A program made the position numbers and the translations under genes. A model generated the notes under the pieces. That model saw nothing but the letters and a program-made list of their open reading frames with translations. It was not told the origin of the DNA and did no database searches. Shown one piece after another: positions 4,697-30,582 of a stretch of 34,531 nt of DNA (within the stretch, counting starts at the first letter, position 1; each line of letters opens with the position of its first letter). The stretch spans positions 1-34,531 of the IMG/VR virus record IMGVR_UViG_3300006055_000002; one strand, 5' to 3'. Source of the DNA: a virus (taxonomy: Duplodnaviria; Caudoviricetes).

Positions 4697-4711
4697 GATT
4701 CGGCCGGAATC
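4697..4711. promoter_or_regulatory. 15-bp palindrome copy 1 (GATTCGGCCGGAATC)
   Basis: Intergenic, just before an AGGAGG RBS. Confidence 0.75.
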
Positions 4712-4724
4712 AGCAGGAGGAACA

Positions 4725-5072
4725 GTGCAGACAGCCACTCAGGGTGTCGTGAGGATTGACAGCAGGCTGCCGGCCACGGAGCGCGCTAAGCGCAACTGGG
4801 GCGGTCAGACGCCGCCCAACCGGCTCGCTCGTCGCCGGCAGCATCGCCGGACCCGGATCGCCGAAGCCCAGCTCGTCGGGACGCTCGGCATGGCCCTCCT
4901 CTTCGCCCTCTGGCCCTCCTATTGGGCCGTCCTCCTGGTGGTCCTCGGCTATGTCGTGCCGGCCCTGGCCGGGGCGTGGCTCGACACCTACCGCCCGATC
5001 GGTCGGCCGCGGGACCCGGGGCGCCTCGCACTCGCTATCGCACTGCAACTCGATCCCCAGGAGACCAAGTGA
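4725..5072 (+). CDS. Small membrane protein
   Basis: AGGAGG then GTG at 4725; two hydrophobic segments. Confidence 0.6.
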   Translation: MQTATQGVVRIDSRLPATERAKRNWGGQTPPNRLARRRQHRRTRIAEAQLVGTLGMALLFALWPSYWAVLLVVLGYVVPALAGAWLDTYRPIGRPRDPGRLALAIALQLDPQETK

Positions 5073-5602
5073 CGGCACTCATGGACGCATCCCGACAGAG
5101 CGACGGCCGATACGCCAGGGGAACGCCGACCGAGGAGCGTCTCTTTGGCCGGACCGAGCGGCTCGTCTCGGGCTGCCTGGTCTGGACTGGCAGATCCAAC
5201 TCGGATGGCTATGGGCTGCTTTCTGTCGACGGGGGGACCATGAAGGTCCATCGGCTGGCCTGGGAACTGCGTCACGGCCCGATCCCCGTCGGACTTGGCG
5301 TTCTTCATACCTACGACAACCCGCCGTGTGTTGAGGATTCGCACCACTTCCTCGGCACGAATCACGACAACGTGCTTGACCGTCAGCGGAAGGGTCGGAG
5401 CAAGAACCTCTTCGCTTCGGGTGCCGATCACCCGGCAACCAAACGGGCGGGAGAGAGGCACTGGCTGGCCAAGTTGTCCGACGCCGACGTGCAGCGCATG
5501 CGCGAGATGCGCTCCGGCGGCACCCGGCTCATCGACATCGCCGCCGAATTCAACGTGCATCACGCAACCGTCAGCCGAATCTGCAGAGGAGAGTGGAGAT
5601 GA
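5069..5602 (+). CDS. HNH endonuclease with C-terminal HTH
   Basis: 'CLVWTG..DGYG..VHRLAWE..GPIP..VLHTYDNPPCV..HHFLGTNHDN' plus 'IAAEFNVHHATVSRI'. Confidence 0.85.
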   Translation: MTALMDASRQSDGRYARGTPTEERLFGRTERLVSGCLVWTGRSNSDGYGLLSVDGGTMKVHRLAWELRHGPIPVGLGVLHTYDNPPCVEDSHHFLGTNHDNVLDRQRKGRSKNLFASGADHPATKRAGERHWLAKLSDADVQRMREMRSGGTRLIDIAAEFNVHHATVSRICRGEWR

Positions 5603-6447
5603 CCATCATCGAGGAGAGGCTCGCCGAGCTCGAGGGGATCACCCTCAAGTCGGGCGCGCACCAGTTCAAGCCGGGAGCGCCAATCACGGAGCAGGAGTTC
5701 TGCGTGATGGAAGCGTGTGCGTTCGTGGCCGGTGAGAAGTGGTCCGACCACCCGAAGTGCGCCTCGCATGTGATCGGTGCCTTCATGCGTCGGTGGAACG
5801 ACGACACCGACGACGAGGGCCGCGAGGCCCTGAAGGCGTACATCCCTCGACTCGTCGGCTCGGCCGCATCGAAGGAGGTCGAGGACAAGCGAGGGTGGAT
5901 GGCCGCCGATTGGCTCGTCCACACGCACCTTCCGCTCTGGCTGCGCCTCGCCGGCCTGGAGGACCAGGCCGACCGATGCGAAGCCCTCCCGGAGATCACA
6001 AGCGGGGCGGTCTGGCGGGCCCAGCGCGACGACGTCTGGGACGTGCGGGAGAAGGCCTGGGCCAAATACAACACCCGGTACGAGCGCATCCGTGAGGCCG
6101 TCCGGGCCAAGGTCAAGGAAGAGCTCGAGAAGCGGGGACTGCCCGAAGCCGCCGTAGCCGCCGGAGCCGCCGGAGCCGCCGTAGCCGCCGGAGCCGCCGT
6201 AGCCGCCGGAGCCGCCGAAGCCGCCGAAGCCGCCGTAGCCGTCGGAGCCGCCGAAGCCGCCGGAGCCGCCGGAGCCGCCGACTGGCGACCCGGCTCGGCC
6301 AACTACTGGAAGGTGCGGGACGCCGTCCGGGCCAGTCTGAAGGCCACCTTCAAGACCGCCCTCGAGGAGAAGGTCGGGCCCGAGCTGGCCAGCTCCAAGG
6401 CCTCGGCCCTCGACCTGCTCGACCGCATGCTGGCGGTGACGGCATGA
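5599..6447 (+). CDS. Phage protein with Ala-rich tandem repeat
   Basis: 'CVMEACAFVAGEKWSDHPKC..RRWND'; coupled to both neighbours. Confidence 0.8.
   Translation: MTIIEERLAELEGITLKSGAHQFKPGAPITEQEFCVMEACAFVAGEKWSDHPKCASHVIGAFMRRWNDDTDDEGREALKAYIPRLVGSAASKEVEDKRGWMAADWLVHTHLPLWLRLAGLEDQADRCEALPEITSGAVWRAQRDDVWDVREKAWAKYNTRYERIREAVRAKVKEELEKRGLPEAAVAAGAAGAAVAAGAAVAAGAAEAAEAAVAVGAAEAAGAAGAADWRPGSANYWKVRDAVRASLKATFKTALEEKVGPELASSKASALDLLDRMLAVTA
6145..6279 (+). repeat. 15 x 9-bp tandem repeat G(A/G/T)AGCCGCC
   Basis: Encodes (E/V/G)AA x15; one unit reads GTAGCCGTC. Confidence 0.95.
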
Positions 6448-8297
6448 CCGACGCAATCACCCTCCTGCCGGCCGACCCCCGGCTACTCGACCCGGCCGCG
6501 GACAATCCCCGCTCCGACCTCGGCGACCTCGAAGGCCTCGCCGCGTCGATCCTCGAGAAGGGCATCCAGCAGCCGATCATCGTGACGCCTGGCGTCGAGC
6601 CCGGACGATTCACCATCGTCATGGGTCACAGGCGCGCCGCCGCAGCGGTGCTCGCCGGCCTCACCGAGGTCCAGGTCATCGTCCAGGCCGTCGCAGACGA
6701 CGCCGACCGCCAGGAGCTGATGCTGATCGAGAACCTCCAGAGGGAGGATCTCTCGACGCTGGACACCGCCCGCGGCTTCAAGGCGCTCGCCGACGGAGGC
6801 CTCACCCAACGGGAGATCGCCACGAAAGTCGGCGTGAGCCAGTCGATGGTCAGCAAGCACCTCTCGCTCCTGAAGCTCCCCGAGCCCGTGGTCGAGCTCG
6901 TCGCAGCTGGGGAGCTGTCCCAGGAGGATGCCGTCACGCTGGCCGGACTGCCGGCCGGAGCACGGGACGACATCGCCGCCGATGTCGAGAACGAGGCCAG
7001 CTCCGGGCATCCCCTGTCCGGAATCGAAGTAGCTCGAGCCATCGCCCACGCCAAGCACGAGGCGGAACAGCACGCCGCCTTCGAGGCAGAAGTCGCCGAA
7101 CTGAGGGCCGCTGGCGTCACCTTCGTCGATATCGACAATGTCAAGCCCAACTACGCCCCGGTTGGCCCCGTCATTCTCGGAGCGATGTATTGGGTGAAGC
7201 CGAGGCAGCATCTGGACGCGCCGTGCCGCGTCGTCGCCATTCGGGATGGCCGGATTGTCGTCGAGGCCTGCAACGAACCGAAGGACCACCCCAAGCCCGT
7301 CGACAAGCCCGAGCCGAGTAGAGGGCCACGGTCGAAAAAGGAGTCATCGGAGGCGGCGGCCAGGCGAGAGTCGATCGAGCGGTTCCGCGTCGATCTCTCC
7401 GAGGCCAACGAGCGACGCAAGGCGTGGCTCGCCACCGTGGAAGGCGATTCCGCCGGAATCAGCCGGGCGACCCTGGAGCTGATGTTCCTGCTCGACGAAA
7501 ACAGCCCGCTCGATCTCCCCGAACTCTGCGAACGCCTCGATGTTCCGTTCGGCGATCCGAGCCAGGACGGTGCGGCCGAATGCACCGCGATCCTCGCAGC
7601 GCACCTCGACGAGACGTCAGCCCGTCGAGCGACCTTCGTCGCTCTCGCGCTGGCAGTCGGCGAGATGTTCGATCAGACCGGCACTCGTTCGAACCGGTTC
7701 GAAGCCGATGCCTACGACGCTGAGAGAGGGACCGTCTATCTCGAGGCACTCGCAGAACTGGGCTATGCGCCGACTTGGATCGAGGCCAAGTACCTCAATC
7801 GGCCCTACGAGGAGCCTCAGATGCCGGGCACTTCGTCCCCGGCAACTGAGGAAGGAGCCTCAGATGCCGAAGCACTGACCGCTCCGGTGTCGATGACCGG
7901 TGATCTGCCGGCCGATCCGACTGACGACGAAGACGAAACCGTCATCGTGGTCGAAGAGTCAGAGTTCGGCCCGGGCCCGGATCCCGTAGAGAACGGCCTC
8001 AGGCGCCTCGCCGAGCTGAATGCGGAGGACGAGGACCAGACGGTCATGCTCGACGCGGGCACCGAGGCTCCGGCCGGTGCCGATTTCTCGACCTCAGATG
8101 AGGGGACGAAACCGGTACCCCACCGGTCCGAGCCTGCGATGCCCGCGCTCCCCCTGGACGTCGCCATCGACGAGAAGAAGGGGAAGTTCTACACCCGTTG
8201 CACCGAGTGCGGGGAGATCGGCTTCAACACCAAGCTCGACACTGCCCAGATGCGCCGAAAAGAGCACCTCCGGTCGGCCCACGGGAGGGCCGCATGA
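6444..8297 (+). CDS. parB: ParB/Spo0J/KorB-family protein with long acidic C-terminus and terminal C2H2-like Zn motif
   Basis: 'NPR..LAASILEKGIQQPIIV..GHRR', 'LIENLQREDL', HTH 'TQREIATKVGVSQSMVSKHL'; ends 'CTEC..HLRSAH'. Confidence 0.88.
   Translation: MTDAITLLPADPRLLDPAADNPRSDLGDLEGLAASILEKGIQQPIIVTPGVEPGRFTIVMGHRRAAAAVLAGLTEVQVIVQAVADDADRQELMLIENLQREDLSTLDTARGFKALADGGLTQREIATKVGVSQSMVSKHLSLLKLPEPVVELVAAGELSQEDAVTLAGLPAGARDDIAADVENEASSGHPLSGIEVARAIAHAKHEAEQHAAFEAEVAELRAAGVTFVDIDNVKPNYAPVGPVILGAMYWVKPRQHLDAPCRVVAIRDGRIVVEACNEPKDHPKPVDKPEPSRGPRSKKESSEAAARRESIERFRVDLSEANERRKAWLATVEGDSAGISRATLELMFLLDENSPLDLPELCERLDVPFGDPSQDGAAECTAILAAHLDETSARRATFVALALAVGEMFDQTGTRSNRFEADAYDAERGTVYLEALAELGYAPTWIEAKYLNRPYEEPQMPGTSSPATEEGASDAEALTAPVSMTGDLPADPTDDEDETVIVVEESEFGPGPDPVENGLRRLAELNAEDEDQTVMLDAGTEAPAGADFSTSDEGTKPVPHRSEPAMPALPLDVAIDEKKGKFYTRCTECGEIGFNTKLDTAQMRRKEHLRSAHGRAA
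7446..7460. promoter_or_regulatory. 15-bp palindrome copy 2 (GATTCCGCCGGAATC)
   Basis: Inside parB; read in frame as DSAGI. Confidence 0.7.
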
Positions 8298-10091: not shown

Positions 10092-10159
10092 TCCGTCGAT
10101 GGATCAGCCGCAAGCTCGACGAGTGGCTCGGCTGGGACGAGTGGCGGCTCCGGTCGTGA
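10088..10159 (+). CDS. 23-aa Trp-rich peptide
   Basis: MIRRWISRKLDEWLGWDEWRLRS; GTGA overlaps at both ends. Confidence 0.45.
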   Translation: MIRRWISRKLDEWLGWDEWRLRS

Positions 10160-10545
10160 AGCGCACCGAGCTGGCGAAGGTCTCGCCGAAGCGTCGCCGG
10201 GAGAACCGCGTCCGGTCGAGGCTGCTCAAGGCGCGCCGCGGCGACAATCCGATCTGCGAGGCCCGTCTCCCAGGATGCCGGGGGAGAGTCGACGACGGCC
10301 ACGAGATCAAGACCGCCGGCCGTGGCGGCTCCCGGGTCGACCTCTCGAACATCGCCGACCTCTGTCGCTGGTGCCACGACATCATCACCCGCAACTCGGC
10401 ATGGTCGGATCGGCACGGCTGGACGGTACCGAGCACGGCCACGCCCGGTGACATTGGGATCGCTCGCCAGATCCGATCTGTGTTCCGATGCACCGCCGGC
10501 TGCGCGATCGACCACCGCATAGAGGTCTCGGAGCTGGCCACGTGA
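10156..10545 (+). CDS. HNH-family nuclease
   Basis: 'MKRT..CEARLPGC..DGHE..RGG..SNIADLCRWCH'. Confidence 0.75.
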   Translation: MKRTELAKVSPKRRRENRVRSRLLKARRGDNPICEARLPGCRGRVDDGHEIKTAGRGGSRVDLSNIADLCRWCHDIITRNSAWSDRHGWTVPSTATPGDIGIARQIRSVFRCTAGCAIDHRIEVSELAT

Positions 10546-12497
10546 CTGCGACAATCCATCGCCTGGGCGCGACCGTCGACGCCATCGACCTGTTCTGCGG
10601 CTATGGGGGCAGCTCCCAGGGCATCCACGCCAGCGGCGCCACGGTGCGCCTGGCGGCCAATCACAGCCAGATGGCCATCGAATGCCACGCGGCCAACTAT
10701 CCCGACACGGAACACTGTCGGGCCGACCTGTCGAATCCCGACGAGGCCGACTACGTCGACGTCCAGGACCTCCCGCCGGCCCGGTTCCTATGGGCCTCTC
10801 CCTCGTGCAAGTTCCACTCCCAGGCCAACTCGAAGAAGATCTACGCCCGGGGCAACCACAGGGACCACTACGGCACCGAGTTCGACGACGTCGCCTACGC
10901 CAACTCCGAGCGGTCGAGGGTGACCATGCTCTGCCCGCTCCGGTACGCGGCCAAGCACCGTCCCGAGCTCGTCGTCATCGAGAACGTGGTCGAGTGCGCC
11001 AGGTGGGGTCCCGACCGTGACGGCTCGACCTTCCGCTGGTGGCTCGAGGAGTGGACGAAGCTCGGCTACGAGCATGAGACGCTGTTCCTGAACAGCCAGT
11101 TCTTCCCACCGTGCCCGCAGAGCCGCGACCGGATGTACGTCGTCTTCTGGCGTGCCGGCAACACCAAGCCGAATCTCGACTACCTCCCTGACGCCCTGTG
11201 CACGAGCGACCGGTGCCAGGGGTCGATGGTCGGCGCCGTCCAGACATGGAAGCCCAGGACGAAGGCGTGGCCGCTTCCTCGCTGGGGGAAGTACGAGGGC
11301 CAGTACACCTACAGCTGCCCGGACTGCACCGCCCGAGTGCATCCGGTCGCGTGGCCGGCCTACACAGCCATCGACTGGACGAATCTCGGCCCGAGGATGG
11401 ACGAGCGGTCCGAGCTCGGCATGGATCCGCTGGCGCCGACGACCATGGAGCGGATCCGCCGTGGGCTGACCAAGTTCCGGGGCGGCCCTCCGATCGTGAT
11501 CCCCGCCAAGAGCGTCTGGGGCACGGACCGACCGGTCACCTGGCCATTCGGCACGCAGACGAGCCAGCAGGACAAGGCGCTTGTCGGAGCGACGATCGAT
11601 GTTGCCCATACCCACAGCCCGACCCGGTACGCCTCGAATCGCTCTCGTGGGCTTCACGAAGCCCTGCACACTCTCACGAGCTCGGGGCCCGGCGCTGGGG
11701 TCGCCATCGAAGGGCGCCCGTTCATCGTCAAGAACAACGGGTCGATCGACGAGGCCGGATATCGGTCCCGACCGATATCCGAGCCGCTCGGTACGTTCGC
11801 CACCCATCCAACGCAGTCCCTCGTGACCGACGGCGTCTCCGTGGTCGGCGCCGGCAACACCTTCGAGCGGCCCGGCTCGACGTGCCGATCTCGACCGCTC
11901 GCCTTCCCACTTCCTACCCAGCACGCCACGGGTGCCTTCGGGTTCGCTCACACACCCCTGACGGTCAGCCTGAGGGGAACGTCGGAAGGTCATATCACCA
12001 GCTCGAGCGAGCCGGTGACCGAGTCACTCCGGACCGTCAGTGCCGAGGGCCTGCATCACGGCGTCGCATCGCCGGCCCTGTTCCAGAAGATCAATGGGGG
12101 AGCTGGGGACACGGCGTGGCACCACCTGGGCGAGCCGACCAACACGGTCACGGCCCGGGACACGCACGGCCTGATCGTGCTGCCGTGGATCGACCAGTGG
12201 CGCTCCGACCCCGCAGCCATTTCCGAGCAGCTGGCCACGGTGATGACCCATGCTCGGCACTCCCTGGCGTCGGTCGAGGTCGACTGCGAGCCCATCACCG
12301 ATGCTGACCTCGACCAGGTGCGCTTCCGGATGCTCGATCCGGATCCGGAGCTGCGTAGGGCGATGGCCTTCGGCGATGACTACATCCTCCTCGGCAACAA
12401 GAGCCAGATGACCAGCGGGCTCGGCAACGCCGTCACCCCTCCGGTAGCTGCGTGGATCACTGAGCGCTGTCTGGCGACCCTCGGAGGCAACTGCTGA
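10542..12497 (+). CDS. DNA (cytosine-5) methyltransferase
   Basis: Motif I DLFCGYGG, IV SPSC, VI ENV, VIII QSRDR, X GNAV. Confidence 0.93.
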   Translation: MTATIHRLGATVDAIDLFCGYGGSSQGIHASGATVRLAANHSQMAIECHAANYPDTEHCRADLSNPDEADYVDVQDLPPARFLWASPSCKFHSQANSKKIYARGNHRDHYGTEFDDVAYANSERSRVTMLCPLRYAAKHRPELVVIENVVECARWGPDRDGSTFRWWLEEWTKLGYEHETLFLNSQFFPPCPQSRDRMYVVFWRAGNTKPNLDYLPDALCTSDRCQGSMVGAVQTWKPRTKAWPLPRWGKYEGQYTYSCPDCTARVHPVAWPAYTAIDWTNLGPRMDERSELGMDPLAPTTMERIRRGLTKFRGGPPIVIPAKSVWGTDRPVTWPFGTQTSQQDKALVGATIDVAHTHSPTRYASNRSRGLHEALHTLTSSGPGAGVAIEGRPFIVKNNGSIDEAGYRSRPISEPLGTFATHPTQSLVTDGVSVVGAGNTFERPGSTCRSRPLAFPLPTQHATGAFGFAHTPLTVSLRGTSEGHITSSSEPVTESLRTVSAEGLHHGVASPALFQKINGGAGDTAWHHLGEPTNTVTARDTHGLIVLPWIDQWRSDPAAISEQLATVMTHARHSLASVEVDCEPITDADLDQVRFRMLDPDPELRRAMAFGDDYILLGNKSQMTSGLGNAVTPPVAAWITERCLATLGGNC

Positions 12498-13518: not shown

Positions 13519-13754
13519 CCGAGTCCACCGTCCGACCGACCGTCTGGATCACGGAGAGCTTCCGCGACGGCGAACCACGGTTCGGCTGGAAGTGCTCGGG
13601 ATGCGATGTCGAGCGAGTTGGAATCAAGCACCGTCAAATGGCCCACGAGGACGGCGCTGCCCACCGATGCGCTGAGTCGACACCGGCCGTGATCACCGGC
13701 AAGGGACTTGATTCGGCCGGAATCAGCGAGACAGGAGCTGCGCCATGTGCATGA
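13515..13754 (+). CDS. Small Zn-binding protein
   Basis: 'WKCSGC..HRC'; ATGA coupling. Confidence 0.55.
   Translation: MTESTVRPTVWITESFRDGEPRFGWKCSGCDVERVGIKHRQMAHEDGAAHRCAESTPAVITGKGLDSAGISETGAAPCA
13710..13724. promoter_or_regulatory. 15-bp palindrome copy 3 (GATTCGGCCGGAATC)
   Basis: TGATTCGGCCGGAATCAGC is identical to copy 1 and again lies just before an AGGAG RBS. Confidence 0.75.
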
Positions 13755-18107: not shown

Positions 18108-18310
18108 GCCGCATTGTGTACGACAGGATCTTCGTGAAGACACCCGTGGGCACCGACGTCCACGAGGACTCGTCCGTGACGCCTCGGAACGACGGCACGC
18201 TCAGGGTCGTTGATTCCGCCGGAATCGAACGTCGCGGCTACGCCCGCGGATGCTGGTTGCAGTGGACGACGCAAGGCGATGCCCATAACCGGCCGCCAGG
18301 GCGGCGCTGA
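18104..18310 (+). CDS. Hypothetical protein
   Basis: Coupled at both ends. Confidence 0.55.
   Translation: MSRIVYDRIFVKTPVGTDVHEDSSVTPRNDGTLRVVDSAGIERRGYARGCWLQWTTQGDAHNRPPGRR
18212..18226. promoter_or_regulatory. 15-bp palindrome copy 4 (GATTCCGCCGGAATC)
   Basis: Intragenic; in-frame DSAGI. Confidence 0.7.
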
Positions 18311-19570: not shown

Positions 19571-19851
19571 CCAACGAGCTCTACCGACGTCGATCGGTCG
19601 CCCTGCAGGAGTTCCTAGACGCCAACGCCGAGCTGTACAGCGTCGCCGAATCAGAAGACGTCGACATCGAAGGGCCGGAGATCATCACCGGCGCCATCCT
19701 GATCCTGCGCAGTCGGTATGCGGGCGGCGAAGGCGAGTTGTCGCTGTCGGTGAACGTTCCGTATGCGCTGGGCATCAGCGAAGAAATGGGGATGATCCAG
19801 CACCAGGCGATGAGACTTAGTGCACGGGTGCTTGACACTGGTGACGACTGA
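19567..19851 (+). CDS. Hypothetical protein
   Basis: ATGA coupling. Confidence 0.6.
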   Translation: MTNELYRRRSVALQEFLDANAELYSVAESEDVDIEGPEIITGAILILRSRYAGGEGELSLSVNVPYALGISEEMGMIQHQAMRLSARVLDTGDD

Positions 19852-19872
19852 CCAAATAACAGAGGAGACCGA

Positions 19873-21063: not shown

Positions 21064-21161
21064 TCCCCTGACAGCGCAACGCCGCCGGCTGGAACCGACG
21101 GCGAAGGCGAGGCATGCGGTGCACCTGAAGGATCCGCAGCCTATGAGAGGAACCGCTCCAC

Positions 21162-21743
21162 ATGGTGGATACTGCCCGGACATCTGACCGTGACATCGAG
21201 GACTGGCTTGCGGAGATCGAATCTCTGACGGCCTACGTGGGAGAACACTTCAAGGCTGCCCGAGCTAGGGCCCGACTCGCAATCCGTGACGGCTATCCAG
21301 CTCGCTCGATGCCGGAGTCATCCGTTGCTGGCGGCCGGATGAGCGATCCGACCGCTGACTTCGTGACATCGAAGGCTGGCGGCAAGATGGACGAGAACGA
21401 TCCTGACATGGCTGTCAGCGACGACGAGTGGCGTGAACAGGGCGACGTGATCCAGGCCAAGGTCTCGCAGATGATCCGGGAGCTCGAGGACGGCCGCAAC
21501 CGAATCCGTGGTGCAGCAGCGTCGCTGCGAGGAGCGTTGCCGCACGACAAGATCCCAGATCCGGTGATGGATCAGTGTCGGATCTGCTTCGTTGCCAAGA
21601 GCACCGTCACCAAGCATGGTGAGAAGCCGAAGCTCTTCATCAACGACAGGATGCTCTGTGCATCGTGCAGTCGACGTGAAGACCGAGCTGAGGCACGCCG
21701 ACAAGAATCGCAGGTCGTTGACTTGCGGAAGCGCGTCGGGTAG
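21162..21743 (+). CDS. Zn-finger protein in the late-regulator position
   Basis: CRIC and CASC; last early gene; its 3' end overlaps a promoter. Confidence 0.65.
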   Translation: MVDTARTSDRDIEDWLAEIESLTAYVGEHFKAARARARLAIRDGYPARSMPESSVAGGRMSDPTADFVTSKAGGKMDENDPDMAVSDDEWREQGDVIQAKVSQMIRELEDGRNRIRGAAASLRGALPHDKIPDPVMDQCRICFVAKSTVTKHGEKPKLFINDRMLCASCSRREDRAEARRQESQVVDLRKRVG

Positions 21744-21746
21744 TGT
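21718..21746 (+). promoter_or_regulatory. Sigma70/SigA-type promoter (putative late promoter)
   Basis: TTGACT, 17 bp, TAGTGT. Confidence 0.7.
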
Positions 21747-21758
21747 GCGTGCTAGTTG

Positions 21759-21791
21759 AGGGATCGTGTCGCTTGCGGCACGGTCCCTTTT
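21759..21791 (+). terminator. Intrinsic terminator
   Basis: GGGATCGTGTCG-CTTG-CGGCACGGTCCC followed by TTTT; 12-bp stem with 2 G-U pairs. Confidence 0.8.
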
Positions 21792-21811
21792 GCGTACCGA
21801 GGTGAGTGCCG

Positions 21812-22078
21812 ATGGTCGCTGGACGCGAGGCATCACCGAAGGACATAGCCAACACCGAGCGGCTGATGGCCTGGTGGACGACGGGCCCTGGCGCTGCTCG
21901 CATCCAGTGGTCGACACCTGGCGACTACGACCGATGCCTCGTTGAACTCGGACAGCACGTCGATCCGAAGATCCTTCACGGTCTCTGTTCCAACCTCCAC
22001 GTCCGAGCAACTGGCGCACGGCCAGGTCATGCACCTGCCGAGGTGGCAGCCAAGGCGGCGCACCACAGCGGCACGTGA
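21812..22078 (+). CDS. Conserved actinophage protein of unknown function
   Basis: 'ERLMAWW..G.GAARI.W.TPGDYDRC..LC.NLH..ATG..PG'; GAGGTG RBS. Confidence 0.7.
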   Translation: MVAGREASPKDIANTERLMAWWTTGPGAARIQWSTPGDYDRCLVELGQHVDPKILHGLCSNLHVRATGARPGHAPAEVAAKAAHHSGT

Positions 22079-22377
22079 GTTGGTCACAGCAACCGTCTGG
22101 TCGTAAGGCACGACTGCCTCGCAACTGGCCAGCGATCCGTCGTCGCATCCTGAAGCGTGATGGTGAGCAGTGCCAATGGATCGTCAACGCCTCGATCTGT
22201 GGGGCCCATGCCAATCAAGTCGATCACGTTCGTCATAGCGACGACCACAGGGACGAGAATCTTCAAGCACTCTGTGACTTCCATCACGCACGCAAATCAG
22301 CGCGTGAAGGCTCGGCAGCCAGGACGAAGAAGTTCAGCGCCAAGCGCCCGGTCCTGAAGCATCCTGGCTTGCGGTAG
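22075..22377 (+). CDS. Packaging-associated HNH endonuclease
   Basis: 'ILKRDG..C..C..VDH..DH..ENLQALCDFHH..KS..E..HPG'. Confidence 0.88.
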   Translation: MSWSQQPSGRKARLPRNWPAIRRRILKRDGEQCQWIVNASICGAHANQVDHVRHSDDHRDENLQALCDFHHARKSAREGSAARTKKFSAKRPVLKHPGLR

Positions 22378-22450
22378 GGGGGTGGCCCCCGGCCCGGGTC
22401 GCTGCGTACCCGGACCGTACTGGTGATCGCTCCGTGTACGGGTCTCCAGG
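22378..22450. other. Candidate cos/packaging region
   Basis: GGGGG..CCCCC hairpin and CCGTGTACGG between the packaging HNH and terminase; inferred from position. Confidence 0.4.
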
Positions 22451-22469
22451 AAGTGGATGGTGCGGCAGA

Positions 22470-22907
22470 ATGGTCTTTGACCTGGGGGTTTGTTGGGAGG
22501 ATCGCCTACTTTCCAAGATAGGGGACGACCCTTCCGGCGCCGGTTGCTGGCTCTGGCTTGCGAGCATTCGACCTGATGGATACGGGCAGATCTGGACGCC
22601 GATGGTCGACGGTCGCCGTCAGCTCCTTTCGGCGCATCGAGCGATGTACGAACTGCTGGTCGGGCCGATCCCTGAAGGCCTCGATCTCGACCATCTCTGT
22701 CGGGTGCGCCTATGCGTGAATCCGGACCACCTGGAGCCGGTCACGCGTCGGGAGAACATCCTTCGAGGCGAATGCCCGGCAGCCGTCCAGGCACGGCAAC
22801 AGCGGTGCAGAGCGGGGCACGAACTCGTTCCGTGCTTGTACGACGGAGACCGGATACGGCGATGCTGCCCGTGCCGGCACGTTCACCCGTCGGCGATCGC
22901 CGCATAG
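22470..22907 (+). CDS. HNH homing endonuclease
   Basis: 'CWLW..DGYG..AHRAMYE..GPIPEGLDLDHLCRVRLCVNPDHLEPVT..EN'. Confidence 0.88.
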   Translation: MVFDLGVCWEDRLLSKIGDDPSGAGCWLWLASIRPDGYGQIWTPMVDGRRQLLSAHRAMYELLVGPIPEGLDLDHLCRVRLCVNPDHLEPVTRRENILRGECPAAVQARQQRCRAGHELVPCLYDGDRIRRCCPCRHVHPSAIAA

Positions 22908-22908
22908 C

Positions 22909-22923
22909 GATTCCGCCGGAATC
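22909..22923. promoter_or_regulatory. 15-bp palindrome copy 5 (GATTCCGCCGGAATC)
   Basis: Intergenic, 6 nt upstream of the tRNA. Confidence 0.75.
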
Positions 22924-22929
22924 ACCCTG

Positions 22930-23002
22930 AGCGGGGTGGAGCAGTTGGTAGCTCGTCGGGTTCATAACCCGAAGGTCGTCGGTTCAAGTCCGACCCCCGC
23001 CA
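22930..23002 (+). tRNA. tRNA-fMet (CAT), initiator type; CCA not encoded
   Basis: Full cloverleaf; A1:C72 mismatch; anticodon arm TCGGG-TTCATAA-CCCGA with three G:C pairs; T arm GTCGG-TTCAAGT-CCGAC. Confidence 0.93.
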
Positions 23003-23050
23003 CTCATGGCCCGACACGGGCCGACGAATCCCGACACGGGAGGTAGCACC

Positions 23051-23503
23051 ATGGCCGGACGTGGCCCCGCACCGAAGGATCCGACTAAACGACGTCGACG
23101 CAATGTGCAGTCCGGCTCGAGCACCACGGTCTCGGCCGACGGGCGCCTGCGAGGGCCCCAGCTCCCCAGGGATGAAGCGCCGCTGACCGGCACTTGGCAT
23201 CCCCGGACTAAGGCCTGGTGGCTCAGCTGGCGGAAGTCTCCCCAGGCGAAGACGTTCGTTCCGACCGATTGGGACTTCCTGCTCGATACGGCCATGCAGC
23301 ATCACCTGATGTGGACCTTCGCCAAGGTCGACCTTGCCAACGAGATCCGGCTGCGGGTGGCCAAGTTCGGTGCCACGGTCGAGGACCGCATGCGCCTCAA
23401 GATGGAAGTCGAGGCGCCGGCCGCCAAGACCGTCGGCCAGCCGGGCGCCTCCGGGGGCAACGTCACCGACATCTCCTCAAGGCGCCAGCGCCTGGCCGGT
23501 TAG
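23051..23503 (+). CDS. terS: Terminase small subunit
   Basis: 'MAGRGPAPK..WHPRTKAWW..W..SPQA..EIRLRVAKFGAT.EDR.RL'; precedes terL. Confidence 0.88.
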   Translation: MAGRGPAPKDPTKRRRRNVQSGSSTTVSADGRLRGPQLPRDEAPLTGTWHPRTKAWWLSWRKSPQAKTFVPTDWDFLLDTAMQHHLMWTFAKVDLANEIRLRVAKFGATVEDRMRLKMEVEAPAAKTVGQPGASGGNVTDISSRRQRLAG

Positions 23504-23506
23504 CCC

Positions 23507-25177
23507 GTGCCGCGCCAACTGGTGCGGGCCGACGCTCACGACCGGGAGCGGTCCCTCGGCTGGCTGGCCACGGCCTGGATGGAGCACTTCCTGGTCCATG
23601 GGCCCGGTGCAGTCCAGGGCGAGCCCGTCGTCCATGGTGACGAGTACACCGGCTTCATCGTCGACTGCTACGCCCTAAGCACCACGGGACGCCTGCTCTA
23701 CGACTCGGCGTTCCTCAGTCGGCCCAAAGGCGCCGACAAGTCGGGTATCGCCGCCCGCTTCGCCTCATTCGAGGCATTGGGGCCCTGCCGATTCGCCGGC
23801 TTCGCCGAGGGTGGCGAGATCTACGAGGATCCCTGGGGACTCGGCTTCACCTACCGGTACGCCAAGGGCGAGCCGATAGGGAAGCCCGTCAAGGGCCCCG
23901 AGATCCGGTGCATGGCGACCGAAGAGGGCCAGACCGGCCTCATCTTCGACACGATCCTCTTCAACTTCACCGAAGGCCCGCTGGCCGAGGTTCCGGGCAT
24001 CGACGCCGGAATCACCCGGATCTACCTGCCTCACGGCGGCAAGATCATCCCGTCGACGGCCGCGTCGTCCTCCAAGGACGGAGGCCGAGAGACCTTCGTT
24101 GCCTTCGACGAAACCCACCTCTACAACACGCCCGAGCTGCGTCGGATGTACAAGACGGTCACTCGGAACCTCCGGAAGCGGAAGCGTGAGGGGACATGGT
24201 TCCTCGAGACGACCACCATGTTCGCCCCGGGCGAAGATTCGATCGCCGAGGCGACCTACCATCTCGCCGGCCTCATCGAGGAGAAGAAGACCAAGCGCCA
24301 GAAGGTGCTCAGCGACCACCGATGGGGTGAGTGCGCTGACCTGACGGACGAGGGTGCGCTGCGCCTGGCGGTCGAGGACGCATTCGGCGATGCCATGGCG
24401 TGGAACGACCTCGATGGCATCATCGACGAGTTCTACGACACCCGCACTGACCCGACCGACAGCCGCCGTTACTTCCTCAACGCTCCGACCGAGACGTCGA
24501 ACGCATGGCTCGCCGCCTACGAGTGGGAGGCACGCCAGGATCTGACCAAGATCGTCATCAGGACCGAGGCGGTCGTCCTGGGCTTCGACGGCTCCCGCAA
24601 GCGCAGCAGGGGAGTCACCGACGCCACGGCCCTAATTGGCTGCCGGGTGCGGGACGGCCACTTCTTCGAGATCGACGTTTGGGAGCAGCCGACCGGAGCG
24701 CTCGGCGAAGGGTGGGAAGTCCCCGTCGCAGCCGTGGATGCCACCGTACGGCAGGCGTTCAAGGACTACCGGGTGGTCGGCTTCTACGCCGACCCGGCCC
24801 GGTGGGAGACCAAGGTCGCCGAGTGGGAAGCCGCATTCGGTCCCCAGCTCAAGGTCAAGTGCTCCCGGGCCCACCCGATCCAGTTCTGGATGACCGGTGG
24901 TAACGCCAGCAGGGCATCTGGGGCGATCACGGACTTCCACAGTGCCATCGTCGACGGGGAGATGACTCACAACGGTGGGGGCGCATTCACCCGCCACGTC
25001 CTCAATGCCCGGAACAGTCCACGCCGGTTCGGCATGTCGATCGCCAAGGATCACCCAGACAGCGCCCGAAAGATCGATGCCGCTGTCGCAGGGGCCCTGG
25101 CCCACAGATGCCGACTCGATGCCGTGGCCGCCGGCATCGGCCGCCAGCACGTTGAGGCGGCACGTCGGATTCGATAG
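23507..25177 (+). CDS. terL: Terminase large subunit
   Basis: Walker A 'RPKGADKS', Walker B 'FDETH', nuclease 'GFDGS..D' and 'KIDAAVA'. Confidence 0.95.
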   Translation: MPRQLVRADAHDRERSLGWLATAWMEHFLVHGPGAVQGEPVVHGDEYTGFIVDCYALSTTGRLLYDSAFLSRPKGADKSGIAARFASFEALGPCRFAGFAEGGEIYEDPWGLGFTYRYAKGEPIGKPVKGPEIRCMATEEGQTGLIFDTILFNFTEGPLAEVPGIDAGITRIYLPHGGKIIPSTAASSSKDGGRETFVAFDETHLYNTPELRRMYKTVTRNLRKRKREGTWFLETTTMFAPGEDSIAEATYHLAGLIEEKKTKRQKVLSDHRWGECADLTDEGALRLAVEDAFGDAMAWNDLDGIIDEFYDTRTDPTDSRRYFLNAPTETSNAWLAAYEWEARQDLTKIVIRTEAVVLGFDGSRKRSRGVTDATALIGCRVRDGHFFEIDVWEQPTGALGEGWEVPVAAVDATVRQAFKDYRVVGFYADPARWETKVAEWEAAFGPQLKVKCSRAHPIQFWMTGGNASRASGAITDFHSAIVDGEMTHNGGGAFTRHVLNARNSPRRFGMSIAKDHPDSARKIDAAVAGALAHRCRLDAVAAGIGRQHVEAARRIR

Positions 25178-25188
25178 GAGGCCGGCGC

Positions 25189-26670
25189 ATGGCGATCGAC
25201 ACCACGCTGCCTCAATCGCCCGGGTGGTGGATGGGTCGGCTCACCAAGAAGATGATGATCCGCCAGAAGCGGCTGATGCTCCTCGAGCTGTACCTCCGGG
25301 GGAATCCTCCCATCGGTGCTGGCGCCGACCAGCTGCGGGAGACCTACCGGGCATTCCAGAACAAGGCACGGTCGAATTTCGCCGAGCTCATCGTCGAAGC
25401 GGTCCGTGAGCGGATGAACGTCCGGGGCTTCCGGACCTCAGCTGAATCCGAGGACATCGGCGACTCGGCTGCCTGGGACATCTGGAAGGCCAACGGGCTC
25501 GACATCGAGTCCATCGACGTGCACGAGTGGATGCTCGGTCTCGGTGACGCCTATGTGATCGTCGGCATGGACGGTGACCAGCCCCTGATCACGGGCGAGG
25601 ATCCCCGCCAGGTCGTCACCGAGCACGACCCCATGCGCCCCCAGAAGGTGGTGGCCGCGCTCAAGCTCTTCCACGACGACGTCAACGACTACGACCTCGC
25701 CTATCTGTACCTCCCGGGGAACGTCTACGTGGCTGGCAAGCCGCGCCGGGCGACCTCCCAGCAGACGACGGGCCCCCAGTTCAACGCCAACGCCTGGAGC
25801 TGGCTCAACGAGGACCTCCAGATCGTGGCCGAGACGGTGAATGCGGCCAGCGCCGACTTCAACGACATGGTCGCCCAGCCGTTGCCCTCTGGATTCGAGG
25901 ACATTGTCCCGGTCGTCCGGTTCGCCAACAAGCACGAGCGCGGCGAGTTCGAGGGCCACATGGACCTCCTCGACCGGATCAACCACATGATCCTCCAGCG
26001 CATGGTGATCGCCACCTTCCAGGCGTTCCGCCAGCGGGCGATCAAAGGCACGTTGCCCGACGTCGACGAGCAGGGCAACACGATCGACTACGAGAAGGTG
26101 TTCTCGGCCGACCCGGGCGCCCTGTGGCAGATCCCGGCCGCCGTCGAGATGTGGGAGTCCGGCATCGTCGACCTGAGCCCGATCCTCAACTCGGTCAAGG
26201 CCGATGTCGAGCACCTGGCCGCCGTCACACGGACGCCGATGCACTACCTGACGCCGGGGGAGTCCTCCCAGTCGGCCGAGGGCGCGGCTCTGGCCAAGGA
26301 AGGCCTGATCTTCAAGACGGTGGACCGGATCAGTCGGGCCAACGTGGGCTGGACCAACGTGATGCACCTCGCCTTCCTGTTCATGGGCGACGAGGAGCGC
26401 TCCAATCTCAGCTCACTCCAGCCGATCTGGGCACCGGCCCAGCGGTACAGCCTCACCGAGATGGCCAGCGCCGCGGCCCAGGCGGCCACCACGCTTCCCA
26501 CGGAGACAATCCAGGAGCTCGTCTGGCAGCTGAGCCCCGAGGAACTTGCCCGGGCGAAGACGCAGCGCCAGGCGGACGTGATCTTCCAGCAGCAGATGGC
26601 CGCACTGGTCCCCAAGGCCGCTCCGGCTCCGGCCCCGACCATCGTCGAGCCGCCAGCAGTGGAATCTTGA
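25189..26670 (+). CDS. Portal protein (SPP1 gp6-like)
   Basis: Position, size, and 'NFAELIVEA..ER', 'VPVVRF.N..GEFE', 'SAEG'. Confidence 0.92.
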   Translation: MAIDTTLPQSPGWWMGRLTKKMMIRQKRLMLLELYLRGNPPIGAGADQLRETYRAFQNKARSNFAELIVEAVRERMNVRGFRTSAESEDIGDSAAWDIWKANGLDIESIDVHEWMLGLGDAYVIVGMDGDQPLITGEDPRQVVTEHDPMRPQKVVAALKLFHDDVNDYDLAYLYLPGNVYVAGKPRRATSQQTTGPQFNANAWSWLNEDLQIVAETVNAASADFNDMVAQPLPSGFEDIVPVVRFANKHERGEFEGHMDLLDRINHMILQRMVIATFQAFRQRAIKGTLPDVDEQGNTIDYEKVFSADPGALWQIPAAVEMWESGIVDLSPILNSVKADVEHLAAVTRTPMHYLTPGESSQSAEGAALAKEGLIFKTVDRISRANVGWTNVMHLAFLFMGDEERSNLSSLQPIWAPAQRYSLTEMASAAAQAATTLPTETIQELVWQLSPEELARAKTQRQADVIFQQQMAALVPKAAPAPAPTIVEPPAVES

Positions 26671-26671
26671 C

Positions 26672-27478
26672 GTGAACCAGGCCGAGCTCGCCGCCATCGT
26701 GGACGCTCAGTCGCAGAGTCAGAATGCGCTCACGCAGATGGCCGTCAATGCCGCCGGCCAGAGTGCCCGGGACTTCACCGGTTGGTACGACAGCGCCCAG
26801 ATCGGACCGTGGGCCTCGCAGCTCGCCTCGCTCATCGAGTCCATTCAAGGCCAGACGGCAGCTTCGACCGACGCCTACCTCACCGAGGTCCTCGCCGGGC
26901 TGAAGGGCTCACCTGTCTCGCCATCGGGGACCATCGATGTCACGGGCCTTCGAAAGGGCGTGAGCCACACCGAGGTCTACGGCCGGGCGGCCGACACGTA
27001 CCGGTACGAGGTGTCGCAGGGCAAGTCCGAATCCGAGGCGCTCAAATCAGCGGTCAAGAGAGCCGAGGTGTTGGCCGAGACTGACGTGCAGCTGGCCCAG
27101 CGGGACCAGTCGCAGCGGTTCATGACCTCGAAGAAGGTCAACGGCTACCGCAGGATCATCCATCCGGAGTTGAGCAAGGGCGGCACGTGCGGCCTCTGCA
27201 TCGCCGCCTCCGACCGGATCTACGTCGCCTCGGACCTCATGCCGATCCACGCCCGCTGCGGATGCACAACTGCTCCGATTCTCGGTGCACAGGATCCTGG
27301 CCACGAGCTGAACCGATCCGATCTCAACGCTCTCTACGAGCAGGCCGGAGGGTCAACCTCCGCTGCCGACCTGAAGAAGGTGCGCTACACGGTGCACGAC
27401 AACGGCGAGATCGGCCCAGTCCTCGGCGTGGAAGGTCAGGCCTTCCGAGGCCCGGACGACCTGCCGCTCGCCGCCTGA
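26672..27478 (+). CDS. Head maturation / MuF-like minor head protein
   Basis: 'GYRRIIHPE..CGLCIAAS.R.Y..L.PIH.RC.C'. Confidence 0.8.
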   Translation: MNQAELAAIVDAQSQSQNALTQMAVNAAGQSARDFTGWYDSAQIGPWASQLASLIESIQGQTAASTDAYLTEVLAGLKGSPVSPSGTIDVTGLRKGVSHTEVYGRAADTYRYEVSQGKSESEALKSAVKRAEVLAETDVQLAQRDQSQRFMTSKKVNGYRRIIHPELSKGGTCGLCIAASDRIYVASDLMPIHARCGCTTAPILGAQDPGHELNRSDLNALYEQAGGSTSAADLKKVRYTVHDNGEIGPVLGVEGQAFRGPDDLPLAA

Positions 27479-27491
27479 TTCTGCCGGAATC
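27477..27491. promoter_or_regulatory. 15-bp palindrome copy 6 (GATTCTGCCGGAATC)
   Basis: Overlaps the TGA stop, upstream of the scaffold gene. Confidence 0.75.
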
Positions 27492-27546
27492 ACCGACATC
27501 CCGCCCCGCCAAGGGGAACCCGATCCCGACATGGGAGGAACCACCG

Positions 27547-28311
27547 ATGAATGCTGCACGCCCGCTTCTGCCTGCCCTGAAGGACGCCTGGACTGCCCAA
27601 GGGTGGGACCTGGCCGACCTCCGAGCATTCCGGATGGAAGAACCCACTCCTCCCGCTCCTCCCGCTCCGGGCCCGACGCCGCCGGCACCCGCTCCTCCCG
27701 CTCCCACGCCTCCGGCGCCCGGACCCACGCCGCCCACGCCTCCGGAACCGGCCGAGCGGGGATTCCCGGAAAACACTCCGCTCGAGCAGATGACCGTCGA
27801 GCAGCGCGAGGCCTACTGGAAGTTCCAGAGCCGCAAGCACGAGGGCCGCGCCAACGAGCGCAAGGACTACGACGACCTGAAGAAGAAGGCCGACGAGTAC
27901 GACGAGCTCCTGAAGTCCACCCGGACCGAACAGGAGAAAGCCGTCGAGGACGCGAAGAAGGAAGGCGCCGACGCAGCACGCTCCGAGGAGCAGGCGCGCA
28001 TCGCCCCCAAGCTCGTGGCCGCCGAGTTCCGCGCCGTCGTGGCCGGTCGGATGACCGCCGAGCAGCTCACGGCCGTCCTCGAGCCCCTCGATTCCACCAA
28101 GTTCCTCTCCGACACGGGCGAGGTCGACACCCAGAAGGTGGCCACCTTCGTCGCCAGCATCGTCCCTGCGGACGACGGCAAGGGCGGCAAGCCCGGCTTC
28201 CCCAACCTCGGCCAAGGCCGACGCACCACGGGCGGCACGCCCTCTGTAGGAACCGGCTCAGAGCGCTACGCCGAGCGCCACGCATCCCGCAACCGCACTC
28301 CGTCTACCTGA
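27547..28311 (+). CDS. Head scaffolding protein
   Basis: GGAGG RBS; Pro-rich N-terminus; 'YWK..SRKHE'; coiled coil. Confidence 0.85.
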   Translation: MNAARPLLPALKDAWTAQGWDLADLRAFRMEEPTPPAPPAPGPTPPAPAPPAPTPPAPGPTPPTPPEPAERGFPENTPLEQMTVEQREAYWKFQSRKHEGRANERKDYDDLKKKADEYDELLKSTRTEQEKAVEDAKKEGADAARSEEQARIAPKLVAAEFRAVVAGRMTAEQLTAVLEPLDSTKFLSDTGEVDTQKVATFVASIVPADDGKGGKPGFPNLGQGRRTTGGTPSVGTGSERYAERHASRNRTPST

Positions 28312-28327
28312 TCAAGGAGATCCACCC

Positions 28328-29044
28328 ATGAACCTCAGCCCCGTCGTCGAGCAGTTCGGCCAGGAAGACCAGCGCTGGTTGGCGTCGGCAGATGGCACCG
28401 ACTTCGCTCGGTCCCTCACCCTCGACGTCACCAAGTTCACGCCCAGCGTCCACTACCCGAACGGCTACCTGCCGTCGGGGATCCCGCTGGCCAAGATCAC
28501 GGCGTCCGGTCTCTTCGGGCCCTACACCCCCGACACCAACCAGGTCGAGTCGGCCACCGTCACGGGCGCGCCCACCGGTGGCACGTTCACCCTGACGTTC
28601 AGCGGCCAGACCACGGGAGCGATCGCCTTCAACGCCACAGCCGCCGCGGTGCAGACCGCCCTGGCTGCCCTGTCCAACATCGGCGCGGGCAACGTGGCCG
28701 TGACGGGCGCATCGGGCGGTCCGTACACCGTCACCTTCGTGGGTGCGATGTTCGCCTCCAGCGAGGCGACCATGACGGCCACCTCGTCGCTGACCGGTGG
28801 AACGACTCCTGGCGTGACCATCGCCGTGGTGACCGCTGGCGGTGCCGCGGGCGCCTCGAACGGCCTGCAGACCCTGGTCGGCTTCCTGTTCACGTCGACG
28901 AACGTGATCCAGCGGAACGGCTCGACGCCGGCCGTGGTCGAGGGCGCCATCCTCGACCGCTGCAAGGTCAACACAGCAAAGCTCCCGATCCCCGTGGACG
29001 CAGCCGGCAAGGCAGCGGTCGCTGGTCAGATCATCTTCATCTGA
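28328..29044 (+). CDS. Head decoration protein with an inserted Gly/Thr-rich domain
   Basis: 'GYLPSGIPLAKITASGLFGPY..[insert]..GFLF'; lies between scaffold and capsid genes. Confidence 0.75.
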   Translation: MNLSPVVEQFGQEDQRWLASADGTDFARSLTLDVTKFTPSVHYPNGYLPSGIPLAKITASGLFGPYTPDTNQVESATVTGAPTGGTFTLTFSGQTTGAIAFNATAAAVQTALAALSNIGAGNVAVTGASGGPYTVTFVGAMFASSEATMTATSSLTGGTTPGVTIAVVTAGGAAGASNGLQTLVGFLFTSTNVIQRNGSTPAVVEGAILDRCKVNTAKLPIPVDAAGKAAVAGQIIFI

Positions 29045-29100
29045 GCCGGCACGGCACAGCCTCCCCCGTCAACCGACTGATCGTCTGAGAGGACTCAACC

Positions 29101-30144
29101 ATGTACCTGGACTCCACCTACATCGAGCCGGCCCAGCTCACCGGATACGTCCGGGCAGCGCTGGCCGACTTCCAGATCAACCAGTTCCAGCTGGCCCAGT
29201 GGCTGCCGAACCGGAACGTCGACGACCTCGACTACCGCTTCCAGCAGGGCGGCGAGGGTCTGTCCGAGGCGGCCAACTTCCGGTCGTACGACACCGAGGC
29301 GCAGATCGGCAGCCGCCCCGGGATCACCAGGGTGACCGGCGAGCTGCCCCCCATCTCCCGCAAGCTCCGGTTGGGGGAGTACGACCGCCTCCGGCAGCGC
29401 CGGGAAGGCGGGGATCCGGACTCGATCGTCCTGGGCCTCGAGGGCGACGCGGAGCGCAACGTCCGCAGCATCGCTGCCCGGATCGAGCTGGCTCGTGGAG
29501 ACGCCCTGGTCAATGGGTCGATCACCCTCAACGAGAACGGCATCGTGGCCACCGTGGACTTCTCACGGCCCGCGGCGTGCTCCGTGACCCCGTCCATCGC
29601 CTGGTCCGACACCGTCAACGCGGTGCCGATCACGGATCTGACGGCCTGGAACGTGGCCTACCTGGCCATGAACGGGGAGCCCGTGGGCGCCTACGTGATC
29701 TCTACCCAGATGCTCACGTACCTGGCCCAGAACGCCTCCCTGCGGAACCTGGCCGCCACGGTGGTCGGTGCGCCGACGATGCTCTCCCGTGAGCACCTCC
29801 AGCAGACGCTGGCTGCGTTCGGCCTGCCGCCGTTCTTCGTCTACGACGCTCAGGTCAACGTCAACAGCGCGGCCACCCGGATCCTGCCGTCCAACAAGGT
29901 GCTGATGCTCCCGCCGGCCGTCGCCCCGGACGCCTGGGAGGACACGCAGCTCGGTGGCACCTTCTGGGGCACCACGGCCGAGGCCCTCGAGCCCGGCTAC
30001 GGCATCGAGCAGTCGGACCAGCCGGGCATCGTGGCTGGGGTCTACAACACCCAGGACCCCGTGGCCCTGTGGACCAAGGCCTCGGCCATCAGCCTGCCCG
30101 TGCTGGCCAACCCGAAGCTGGGCTGGGTCGCAACCGTCGCCTGA
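29101..30144 (+). CDS. Major capsid protein (lambda gpE-like)
   Basis: 347 aa; 'A.FRSYD.E..ELPPIS.K..LGEY.RL'; position. Confidence 0.92.
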   Translation: MYLDSTYIEPAQLTGYVRAALADFQINQFQLAQWLPNRNVDDLDYRFQQGGEGLSEAANFRSYDTEAQIGSRPGITRVTGELPPISRKLRLGEYDRLRQRREGGDPDSIVLGLEGDAERNVRSIAARIELARGDALVNGSITLNENGIVATVDFSRPAACSVTPSIAWSDTVNAVPITDLTAWNVAYLAMNGEPVGAYVISTQMLTYLAQNASLRNLAATVVGAPTMLSREHLQQTLAAFGLPPFFVYDAQVNVNSAATRILPSNKVLMLPPAVAPDAWEDTQLGGTFWGTTAEALEPGYGIEQSDQPGIVAGVYNTQDPVALWTKASAISLPVLANPKLGWVATVA

Positions 30145-30183
30145 TTCACGGCGGCGTCAGGCCGCTAAGGAAGGTAGGACCGC

Positions 30184-30582
30184 ATGCGTGTGTTGAGGTA
30201 CGACGTCCATCTGGACGAGCAAGTTCACAAGGCCGGCACGGCTGAGGCTGATCTGCCCCAGGGCGTCAAGATCCCCAATCCTGCGGCGTGGCACGAACCA
30301 GACGAGGAGCTGGCCGACGATTCCGCCGGAATCACCGAGGACATCCCGACAGGGGATCCCGGCGACAACGGAGATCCCGACGGCCAAGGCGGCGAAGACG
30401 GCTCGGAAGGCAACGAAGGACAGGCGCCCGCCACGGGCACCATCCCCAGCCGCTCCGGGCCCGGATCCGCTCGAGCAGCGTGGCTCTCCTACGCCGAGCT
30501 CCACGGCGTCGACGTCGACATCGACGCCAACCGCGAGGAGATCATCGCTGCGCTCGAGCGAGCCGGCGTTCCCACCGAGTAG
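30184..30582 (+). CDS. Acidic head-associated protein
   Basis: Follows the capsid gene; C-terminal helical module 'W..YA..GV..REEIIAAL'. Confidence 0.65.
   Translation: MRVLRYDVHLDEQVHKAGTAEADLPQGVKIPNPAAWHEPDEELADDSAGITEDIPTGDPGDNGDPDGQGGEDGSEGNEGQAPATGTIPSRSGPGSARAAWLSYAELHGVDVDIDANREEIIAALERAGVPTE
30319..30333. promoter_or_regulatory. 15-bp palindrome copy 7 (GATTCCGCCGGAATC)
   Basis: Intragenic; in-frame DSAGI. Confidence 0.7.

Follow-up and report, generated by a model that had tools for sequence, protein, structure and literature searches.

A stretch of 34,531 nucleotides from a tailed virus (Duplodnaviria; Caudoviricetes), positions 1 to 34,531 of IMG/VR record IMGVR_UViG_3300006055_000002 and referred to here as the window, was found to carry seven dispersed copies of one palindrome together with a gene for a solo ParB protein. 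Judging from the biochemistry of ParB, Noc, KorB and BisD, this ParB very probably binds the palindromes, and dimer binding, cytidine triphosphate (CTP)-dependent clamp closure and spreading would be expected from the same biochemistry. The reading that we favour, with moderate confidence, is that the sites are clamp-loading points from which a CTP clamp would coat the free phage chromosome.

A first-pass annotation of the window had described seven copies of a 15-bp palindrome, and all of them were recovered. Exact matches to GATTCNGCCGGAATC were located at 4697, 7446, 13710, 18212, 22909, 27477 and 30319, all seven on the plus strand. When up to two mismatches were allowed, 14 strand-matches were obtained, all of which corresponded to the same seven sites, against a mean of 0.51 in shuffled sequences (maximum 3, n = 100). 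The true length of the motif was 17 bp rather than 15 bp, as a Y before and an R after the palindrome were present in 7/7 copies; the resulting 7-3-7 dyad is YGATTC[C/G/T]-GCC-GGAATCR. Position 6 was C in four sites, G in two and T in one, and the centre was always GCC. The constancy of the central base on the plus strand, which had also been pointed out, held within the window but was not general: in other records the orientation of the centre was balanced (23 GCC vs 22 GGC), and in motif record G036 (G, L and C numbers are our working handles) the centre varied as W-N-W. A second, shorter assembly (L222), which ended at a similar point, was 100% identical to window positions 19371–34526, and sites 5–7 were thereby confirmed.

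Three of the sites had been regarded as near-intergenic and four as lying in genes and reading DSAGI. The contexts of sites 1, 5 and 6 and the DSAGI translation of sites 2, 3, 4 and 7 were reproduced, but a crude codon model backed the coding frame for sites 2 and 7 only; family searches with the small open reading frames (ORFs) holding sites 3 and 4 gave no match. The peptide D335–I339, encoded by site 2 in the window ParB, was not conserved in 11 close homologues. Across the family the sites are translated to DSxGI or to IPxES; both strands and different frames are used, with the rare codons GAT (20%) and GGA (14%). The use of several frames and strands and of rare codons indicates selection on the DNA rather than on the peptide. 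As a rule one copy falls within parB: in 14 aligned parB genes a site was found at one shared column after the helix-turn-helix (HTH), mostly read as LDSGGIT; the window parB has lost the site at this column and holds its own copy elsewhere in the gene. Rfam gave no match at the sites, and consensus scans for promoters and terminators gave matches at chance level, which do not discriminate between readings.

It was found that the sites follow one clade of ParB proteins. A motif-only scan of viral contigs, covering 27 of 64 parts, returned 121 stretches, 80 of them with flanks, most of which held single sites compatible with chance. Six contigs contained at least two sites, and all six encoded a ParB of the same clade (277–317 bits); they showed no major capsid protein match to the window, and their terminases were at most 47% identical. 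In records G000–G007, ParB was the sole ORF family present in 8/8, TerL being present in 7/8. The expected co-occurrence of motif and ParB clade was borne out by a ParB-first search of 80 loci, in which the site was present in 15 of the 18 loci scoring at least 300 bits vs 0/62 below; eight of these 18 loci belonged to the scoring alignment. Outside that alignment, eight of ten whole records had sites (2, 6, 3, 4, 5, 1, 10 and 4 copies) and two had none, so 6/10 hold 3–10 sites. Among 18 whole records with a weaker ParB, none held a site. The motif was not frequent in candidate host chromosomes either: 151 Acidimicrobiales genomes contained eight perfect sites in total, three of them in one genome (G017) that has two such ParB genes, and 18 genomes with ParB relatives contained 11 relaxed sites. 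The isolated host-genome sites lay in mixed settings (pilus genes, a sigma factor, a relaxase-like gene, an integrase) and may be due to chance. Nor was the motif kept by terminase-related phages without a ParB match, as 79 loci around relatives of the window terminase (1.06 Mb, with no ParB match in those stretches) contained 0 sites. Because the sites follow the ParB clade, are scarce in hosts and are absent around terminase relatives, the motif is neither a host motif nor a lineage trait. The earlier claim that the sites are cognate to the orphan ParB thus stood at the level of sequence, given this distribution and the co-variation of the motif with the recognition helix.

By alignment to Caulobacter ParB, residues Q133, K138, H139, K144 and E161 of the window ParB correspond to R173, N178, T179, A184 and G201. 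Reading of an adenine in the Noc site was reported for Q173, and contact with DNA for N178 (PMC7383237). Every GATTCC lattice was paired with Q/K/[RH] helix residues. In G015:C32, from an Ilumatobacteraceae genome, residue 138 is R and six GATGCC-N3-GGCATC sites were observed, with T replaced by G in both arms. They lie 5.2–6.4 kb apart and make up six of the eight such sites in the 4.1-Mb genome, and the last 5.8 kb of G015:C32, which holds host-type genes, has 0 sites. ParBs with Q133/N138 (G045, G047, L568 and L569) accompany 16-bp sites resembling the Noc-binding site (NBS), a pairing expected from the published R173Q code (PMC7383237). When 128 new loci were tested blind, the site was present in 2/2 loci with Q/K/[RH] vs 1/126 others. 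For the 126 of 150 family members that could be parsed, a site-type peptide was detected in 64/112 with Q/K/[RH] vs 1/14 others (p = 4e-4 at the protein level, uncorrected for kinship). Distant phage ParBs (G045, G046, G047, L568, L569, L571 and L574) were seen to have dispersed palindromes of their own, of NBS-like, parS-like or TTTAC-N3-GTAAA type, in 3–6 copies mostly 3–10 kb apart.

The description of the window ParB as an orphan with GHRR (61–64) and ENLQR (96–100) motifs and an HTH was confirmed, and ParA was not found. The protein consists of a ParB-CTPase fold (residues ~15–100) with the GxxR and ENxxR motifs, an HTH (~120–145, including Q133, K138 and H139) and a C-terminal region of ~270 aa with an H-x-PC...C-x-P-x-x-H motif, followed by an acidic linker and a C-terminal CxxC...H...H motif. 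G61, R63, R64, E96, N97 and R100 were invariant across 51 rows. The sequence matched PF02195 and TIGR00180 (123 bits) and, weakly, the HMM PRK13832 (76 bits vs a cut-off of 640). In Foldseek the AlphaFold2 model grouped with ParB, Noc and KorB (7bnk, E = 3e-12; 8qa9, KorB, E = 8e-10), the ParB fold being nearest to chromosomal ParB/Spo0J. The ParA-binding motif LG[KR]GL was found in 0/18 loci, 0/20 homologues and 0/150 further family members, and ParA (PF13614) in 0/19 records, three of which are at least 90% complete, the window itself being a fragment; a tyrosine integrase was present in 15/19. Residues 190–458 gave a confident monomer model (predicted local distance difference test, 91.5), which had no BFVD match at E ≤ 0.001, a best PDB match of Z 5.2 (root-mean-square deviation 3.3, 89 aligned) and atlas features below 0.9, and this is not proof of a new fold. 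The sole match of the C-terminal part was phrog_6218. A profile search returned 150 family clusters at ≥354 bits; the query included the ParB domain, hence this number speaks for family size only.

The gaps between the window sites are 2749, 6264, 4502, 4697, 4568 and 2842 bp, with a coefficient of variation (CV) of 0.28 (p = 0.006 vs random). The evenness of the spacing exceeded the random median in all 18 records with at least three gaps (median gap 6.4 kb; Fisher p = 5e-14); this sum omits G007, G030, G035 and G017:C444, which have fewer than three gaps, and the site sets were defined post hoc. The most even cases, G046 and G015:C32, had CVs of 0.05–0.06, which are hard to derive from promoter positions. 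Such even spacing fits coverage of the whole genome better than promoter control. In nine records, two of them across the circular join, parB was also observed downstream of a cro-like gene in the same orientation, which indicates that parB is probably an early lytic gene. Since parB probably belongs to an early lytic operon, lysogenic silencing is unlikely. The KorB-like silencing proposed in the first-pass annotation was thus left as the weaker option, given this gene order, the even spacing and the lack of a site at the cI/cro switch, which that annotation had correctly noted.

In the mechanism that we propose, ParB would be produced in the early lytic phase or upon induction, as its gene position suggests, and would act on the free or excised genome. 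ParB dimers would bind to the dyad, form a closed clamp with CTP and slide a few kb each way. With a site each 4–6 kb, all phage DNA would come within ~3 kb of a loading point, and the host chromosome would be nearly free of sites. The coat would be phage-specific, because the sites tile the phage and are near-absent from the host chromosome, and its effector would be the C-terminal part. As our best guess, and the least certain step, the coat would both mark and organise the phage DNA as it replicates and protect it against DNA surveillance by the host. The copy within parB probably also limits parB expression.

Several observations weigh against the coating model. The evenness in the window is modest: among 8-mers present in 5–8 copies, taken as an empirical control, 3.7% were equally even. 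The scoring alignment was built partly from motif-bearing records, and in the quick tree, the only one built and weakly supported, motif-less rows were scattered among motif-bearing rows. G008 and G041, with W in the helix, keep one variant palindrome inside parB and no lattice; the variant lattice predicted for both was searched for and was absent. Two clade members, G038 and G040, are without any site; the helix of G040 is the same, but its record is a 19.6-kb fragment. A single GATGCC-type site is present in each of G039 and G029, and just 1–2 sites were found in G007, G035 and G017:C444. Three cultured phages, Opie and Nyceirae of Gordonia and Maja of Arthrobacter, share the long ParB architecture with a different helix, and a de novo palindrome search detected no lattice in them. 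The same kind of search gave no lattice in G029, G038–G044, G048, G049, G053–G055, G057 and 40 kb of G014:C204. Finally, BLAST could miss a small, fast-evolving binder that travels with parB.

It is possible, but rather unlikely, that the clamps slide to promoters and control transcription at long range, repressing (KorB-like) or activating (BisD-like) with a partner. Precedents exist in KorB (PMC11790492) and BisD (PMC12409273), three of the seven window sites lie at gene junctions, the site within parB suggests autoregulation, and the extra C-terminal domain could serve as an activator domain, as in BisD. However, the cI/cro switch is without a site, at least 38 of the 90 sites in the family lie in the middle of a gene, and no partner gene common to the eight records was detected by BLAST, which may miss remote partners; BisD, moreover, works with two sites 2 kb apart, and even tiling is therefore not needed for this mode of action. 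The sites would form a dispersed centromere if, through ParB, host SMC or ParA were recruited and the excised circle was thereby positioned or segregated, either ahead of integration or in carrier growth. The closeness of the fold to chromosomal ParB/Spo0J, the similarity of the 7-bp arms to parS/NBS half-sites and a temperate lifestyle with a free circular stage are in line with this, but the sites are dispersed rather than clustered, integrases are frequent in the records, and neither ParA nor LG[KR]GL was found in any of the sets given above; we judged a centromere to be unlikely.

We consider it quite improbable that another reader, such as CI, Cro, the phage methyltransferase, a host regulator or a small phage protein, binds the sites and that ParB merely co-occurs. 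The link between ParB and site was drawn from sequence, some ParB carriers lack sites, and each arm includes GANTC and the core CCGG. On the other hand, the site letters follow the ParB helix residues, no further gene was common to the eight records, and a host regulator is disfavoured by the near absence of the motif in host chromosomes. The window methyltransferase matched no other motif record, and the CcrM/GANTC and methyltransferase readings were rejected on account of the actinobacterial host and of an enzyme not common to the motif records. An RNA hairpin, a directional recombination site or a by-product of the DSAGI peptide would account for the identical centre on the transcribed strand in 7/7 window copies, four of which encode one peptide. 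Such origins are extremely improbable and largely refuted by the mixed orientation and frames: the orientation is balanced in other records, the centre is variable (G036), several frames and intergenic positions are used, the inner pair is broken in two window copies, and Rfam gave nothing.

Compared with known systems, and judged by sequence features, the system would resemble KorB/OB, Noc/NBS or BisD/bisS in action and falls outside ParABS, KorB and Noc on the features tested. For ParABS, there was no ParA, no ParA-binding motif and no clustered centromere, the sites being over-dispersed. KorB/OB of plasmid RK2 (PMC11790492) is alike in its ParB-CTPase fold and in a single palindrome dispersed over a mobile genome (12 sites in RK2). 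However, KorB has a ParA partner, IncC, as well as KorA, and silences promoters, whereas the phage system had no IncC, KorA or IncP replicon, no ParA-family gene and no shared small partner by BLAST; the phage also integrates, would express parB in early lytic growth, has even tiling and encodes a bigger, unrelated C-terminal part. Noc of Firmicutes (PMC7383237) is an orphan ParB paralogue without the ParA-binding motif, with Q at 173, a basic/His residue at 179 and NBS arms like those found here. In contrast, the window site is a 17-bp 7-3-7 dyad instead of 16 bp, K replaces the conserved N178 and E replaces R201 (Q-H-K-E vs QKKR), TIGR04285 scored 110 against a cut-off of 315, the protein is phage-borne, and no N-terminal membrane helix was evident by inspection.

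BisD/bisS of ICEclc (PMC12409273) shares a solo ParB with an extra C-terminal domain, an integrating element, odd-length palindromes in genes and action upon activation of the element. BisD has two sites 2 kb apart, slides over 50 kb and has the partner BisC, whereas the phages have 4–10 evenly spaced sites and no shared partner was found. In Cluster O mycobacteriophages (PMC4351075), a dyad repeat of 17 bp is likewise arranged as 7-3-7, with invariant arms and a variable centre, lies in and between genes and is absent from the host, and a gene with a ParB-like domain is listed. It differs in its arms and in copy number (34 copies in 70 kb), and the paper, in the part available, names no binder and draws no link to ParB. 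HerB/YfjB of plasmid F (bioRxiv 10.64898/2026.07.07.736705) is also a solo ParB-like protein of great length that has novel C-terminal domains and is produced soon after entry, but its target is the host chromosome, where no consensus site applies, and not the plasmid that encodes it, whereas the phage sites are on the phage and near-absent from hosts. In a literature search limited to main texts and few subscription journals, no description of evenly spaced ParB sites on a phage was found. The locus contributes a clade that is temperate and integrating, a code linking helix residues to bases, a site embedded in parB itself and a test case in culture.

With its 34.5 kb, the window is an incomplete piece from a temperate siphophage (CheckV 45%), and its right end falls within the tape measure gene. 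It contains xis, a tyrosine integrase, cI, cro, ParB, a C5 methyltransferase, a replication initiator, RtcB, tRNA-Met, terminase, and head and tail genes; the coordinates of the sites and of the main features are collected in Table 1.

Table 1. Palindromic sites and other features of the window (RBS, ribosome-binding site)
Feature	Coordinates	Strand	Description
Site 1	4696..4712	.	TGATTCG-GCC-GGAATCA; intergenic, 5' of RBS, early operon
Site 2	7445..7461	.	within parB, residues D335-I339
Site 3	13709..13725	.	end of small early ORF, directly 5' of next RBS
Site 4	18211..18227	.	within small ORF 18104-18310
Site 5	22908..22924	.	HNH gene stop / tRNA-Met interval
Site 6	27476..27492	.	spans stop codon (TGA) of head maturation protease gene
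Site 7	30318..30334	.	within head-tail connector gene
Excisionase-like gene	887..1108	+	
Tyrosine integrase	1105..2571	+	ORF continues through attP
Intact attP	2202..2412	.	31-bp core 2263-2293, paired arm-type repeats 2202/2213 and 2395/2406
cI-like repressor	3205..3522	-	
cro-like gene	3632..3934	+	first of early operon containing parB
Solo ParB	6444..8297	+	617 aa

The 'left element', which had been set apart in the first-pass annotation, turned out to be the phage's own integration module (xis, int and attP), which would target the RNase P RNA gene of Acidimicrobiia. The attP core matched the 3' terminus of this gene in Acidimicrobiia genome G383 perfectly, and because of this identity the host is probably a member of the Acidimicrobiia; the 31-bp core alone was not recognised by Rfam. 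In genome G073, a 10-kb element with an integrase 53% identical to that of the window lies between rnpB and a copy of the rnpB end, and the att core of motif phage G034 was similar. The integrase ORF runs ~130 codons beyond the catalytic domain, overlapping the 3' end of an opposite-strand SHOCT-domain gene. Because the ORF passes through attP, integration would alter the C-terminus of the integrase. In the cI/cro interval, a long imperfect inverted repeat at 3572–3611 is the probable repressor operator region; it has ATTCCGG in common with the ParB half-site, in a different arrangement. The ORF immediately 5' of parB (5593–6447) contains a 9-bp tandem repeat (Ala-rich) at 6107–6307. The early operon also encodes a C5 cytosine methyltransferase of 669 aa (10488–12497), to which the other motif records gave no match. 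An RtcB RNA ligase (19873–21063) and tRNA-Met(CAT) (22930–23003) precede the terminase, and together they are a possible counter to host anticodon nucleases.

A further solo ParB, of 771 aa, was found in the cultured temperate phage VarioGold (L466, OP296522), which has six 16-bp palindromes of GTGCAGA-YR-TCTGCAC type, one within parB, at 5756, 15561, 21002, 29452, 31899 and 37753 (CV 0.36, p = 0.018). A word search of the VarioGold paper (PMC9658991) for 'palindrom', 'repeat' or 'parS' returned nothing. As this cultured phage has the same layout with a different palindrome, the question is testable now.

Temperate phages commonly carry long 'ParB-like' genes, whose products tend to be labelled nucleases or partition proteins with no known function, and prophage orphan ParBs were listed as uncharacterised in PMC12704722. 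For such ParBs, the present finding offers a candidate target on DNA, a prediction of how they act and a code that relates residues to bases. Reading the repeats as ParB sites may also explain the 17-bp repeats of Cluster O mycobacteriophages, and orthogonal ParB/site pairs would be useful as DNA-labelling tools. More tentatively, and as a conjecture that may well not hold, in many tailed phages, including temperate ones, a solo ParB-CTP clamp, an evenly spaced cognate lattice and a helix-to-site code might together constitute a self-marking chromatin during lytic growth, which would keep phage DNA organised and out of reach of those host defences that target DNA, with neither a phage nucleus nor modified bases being needed.

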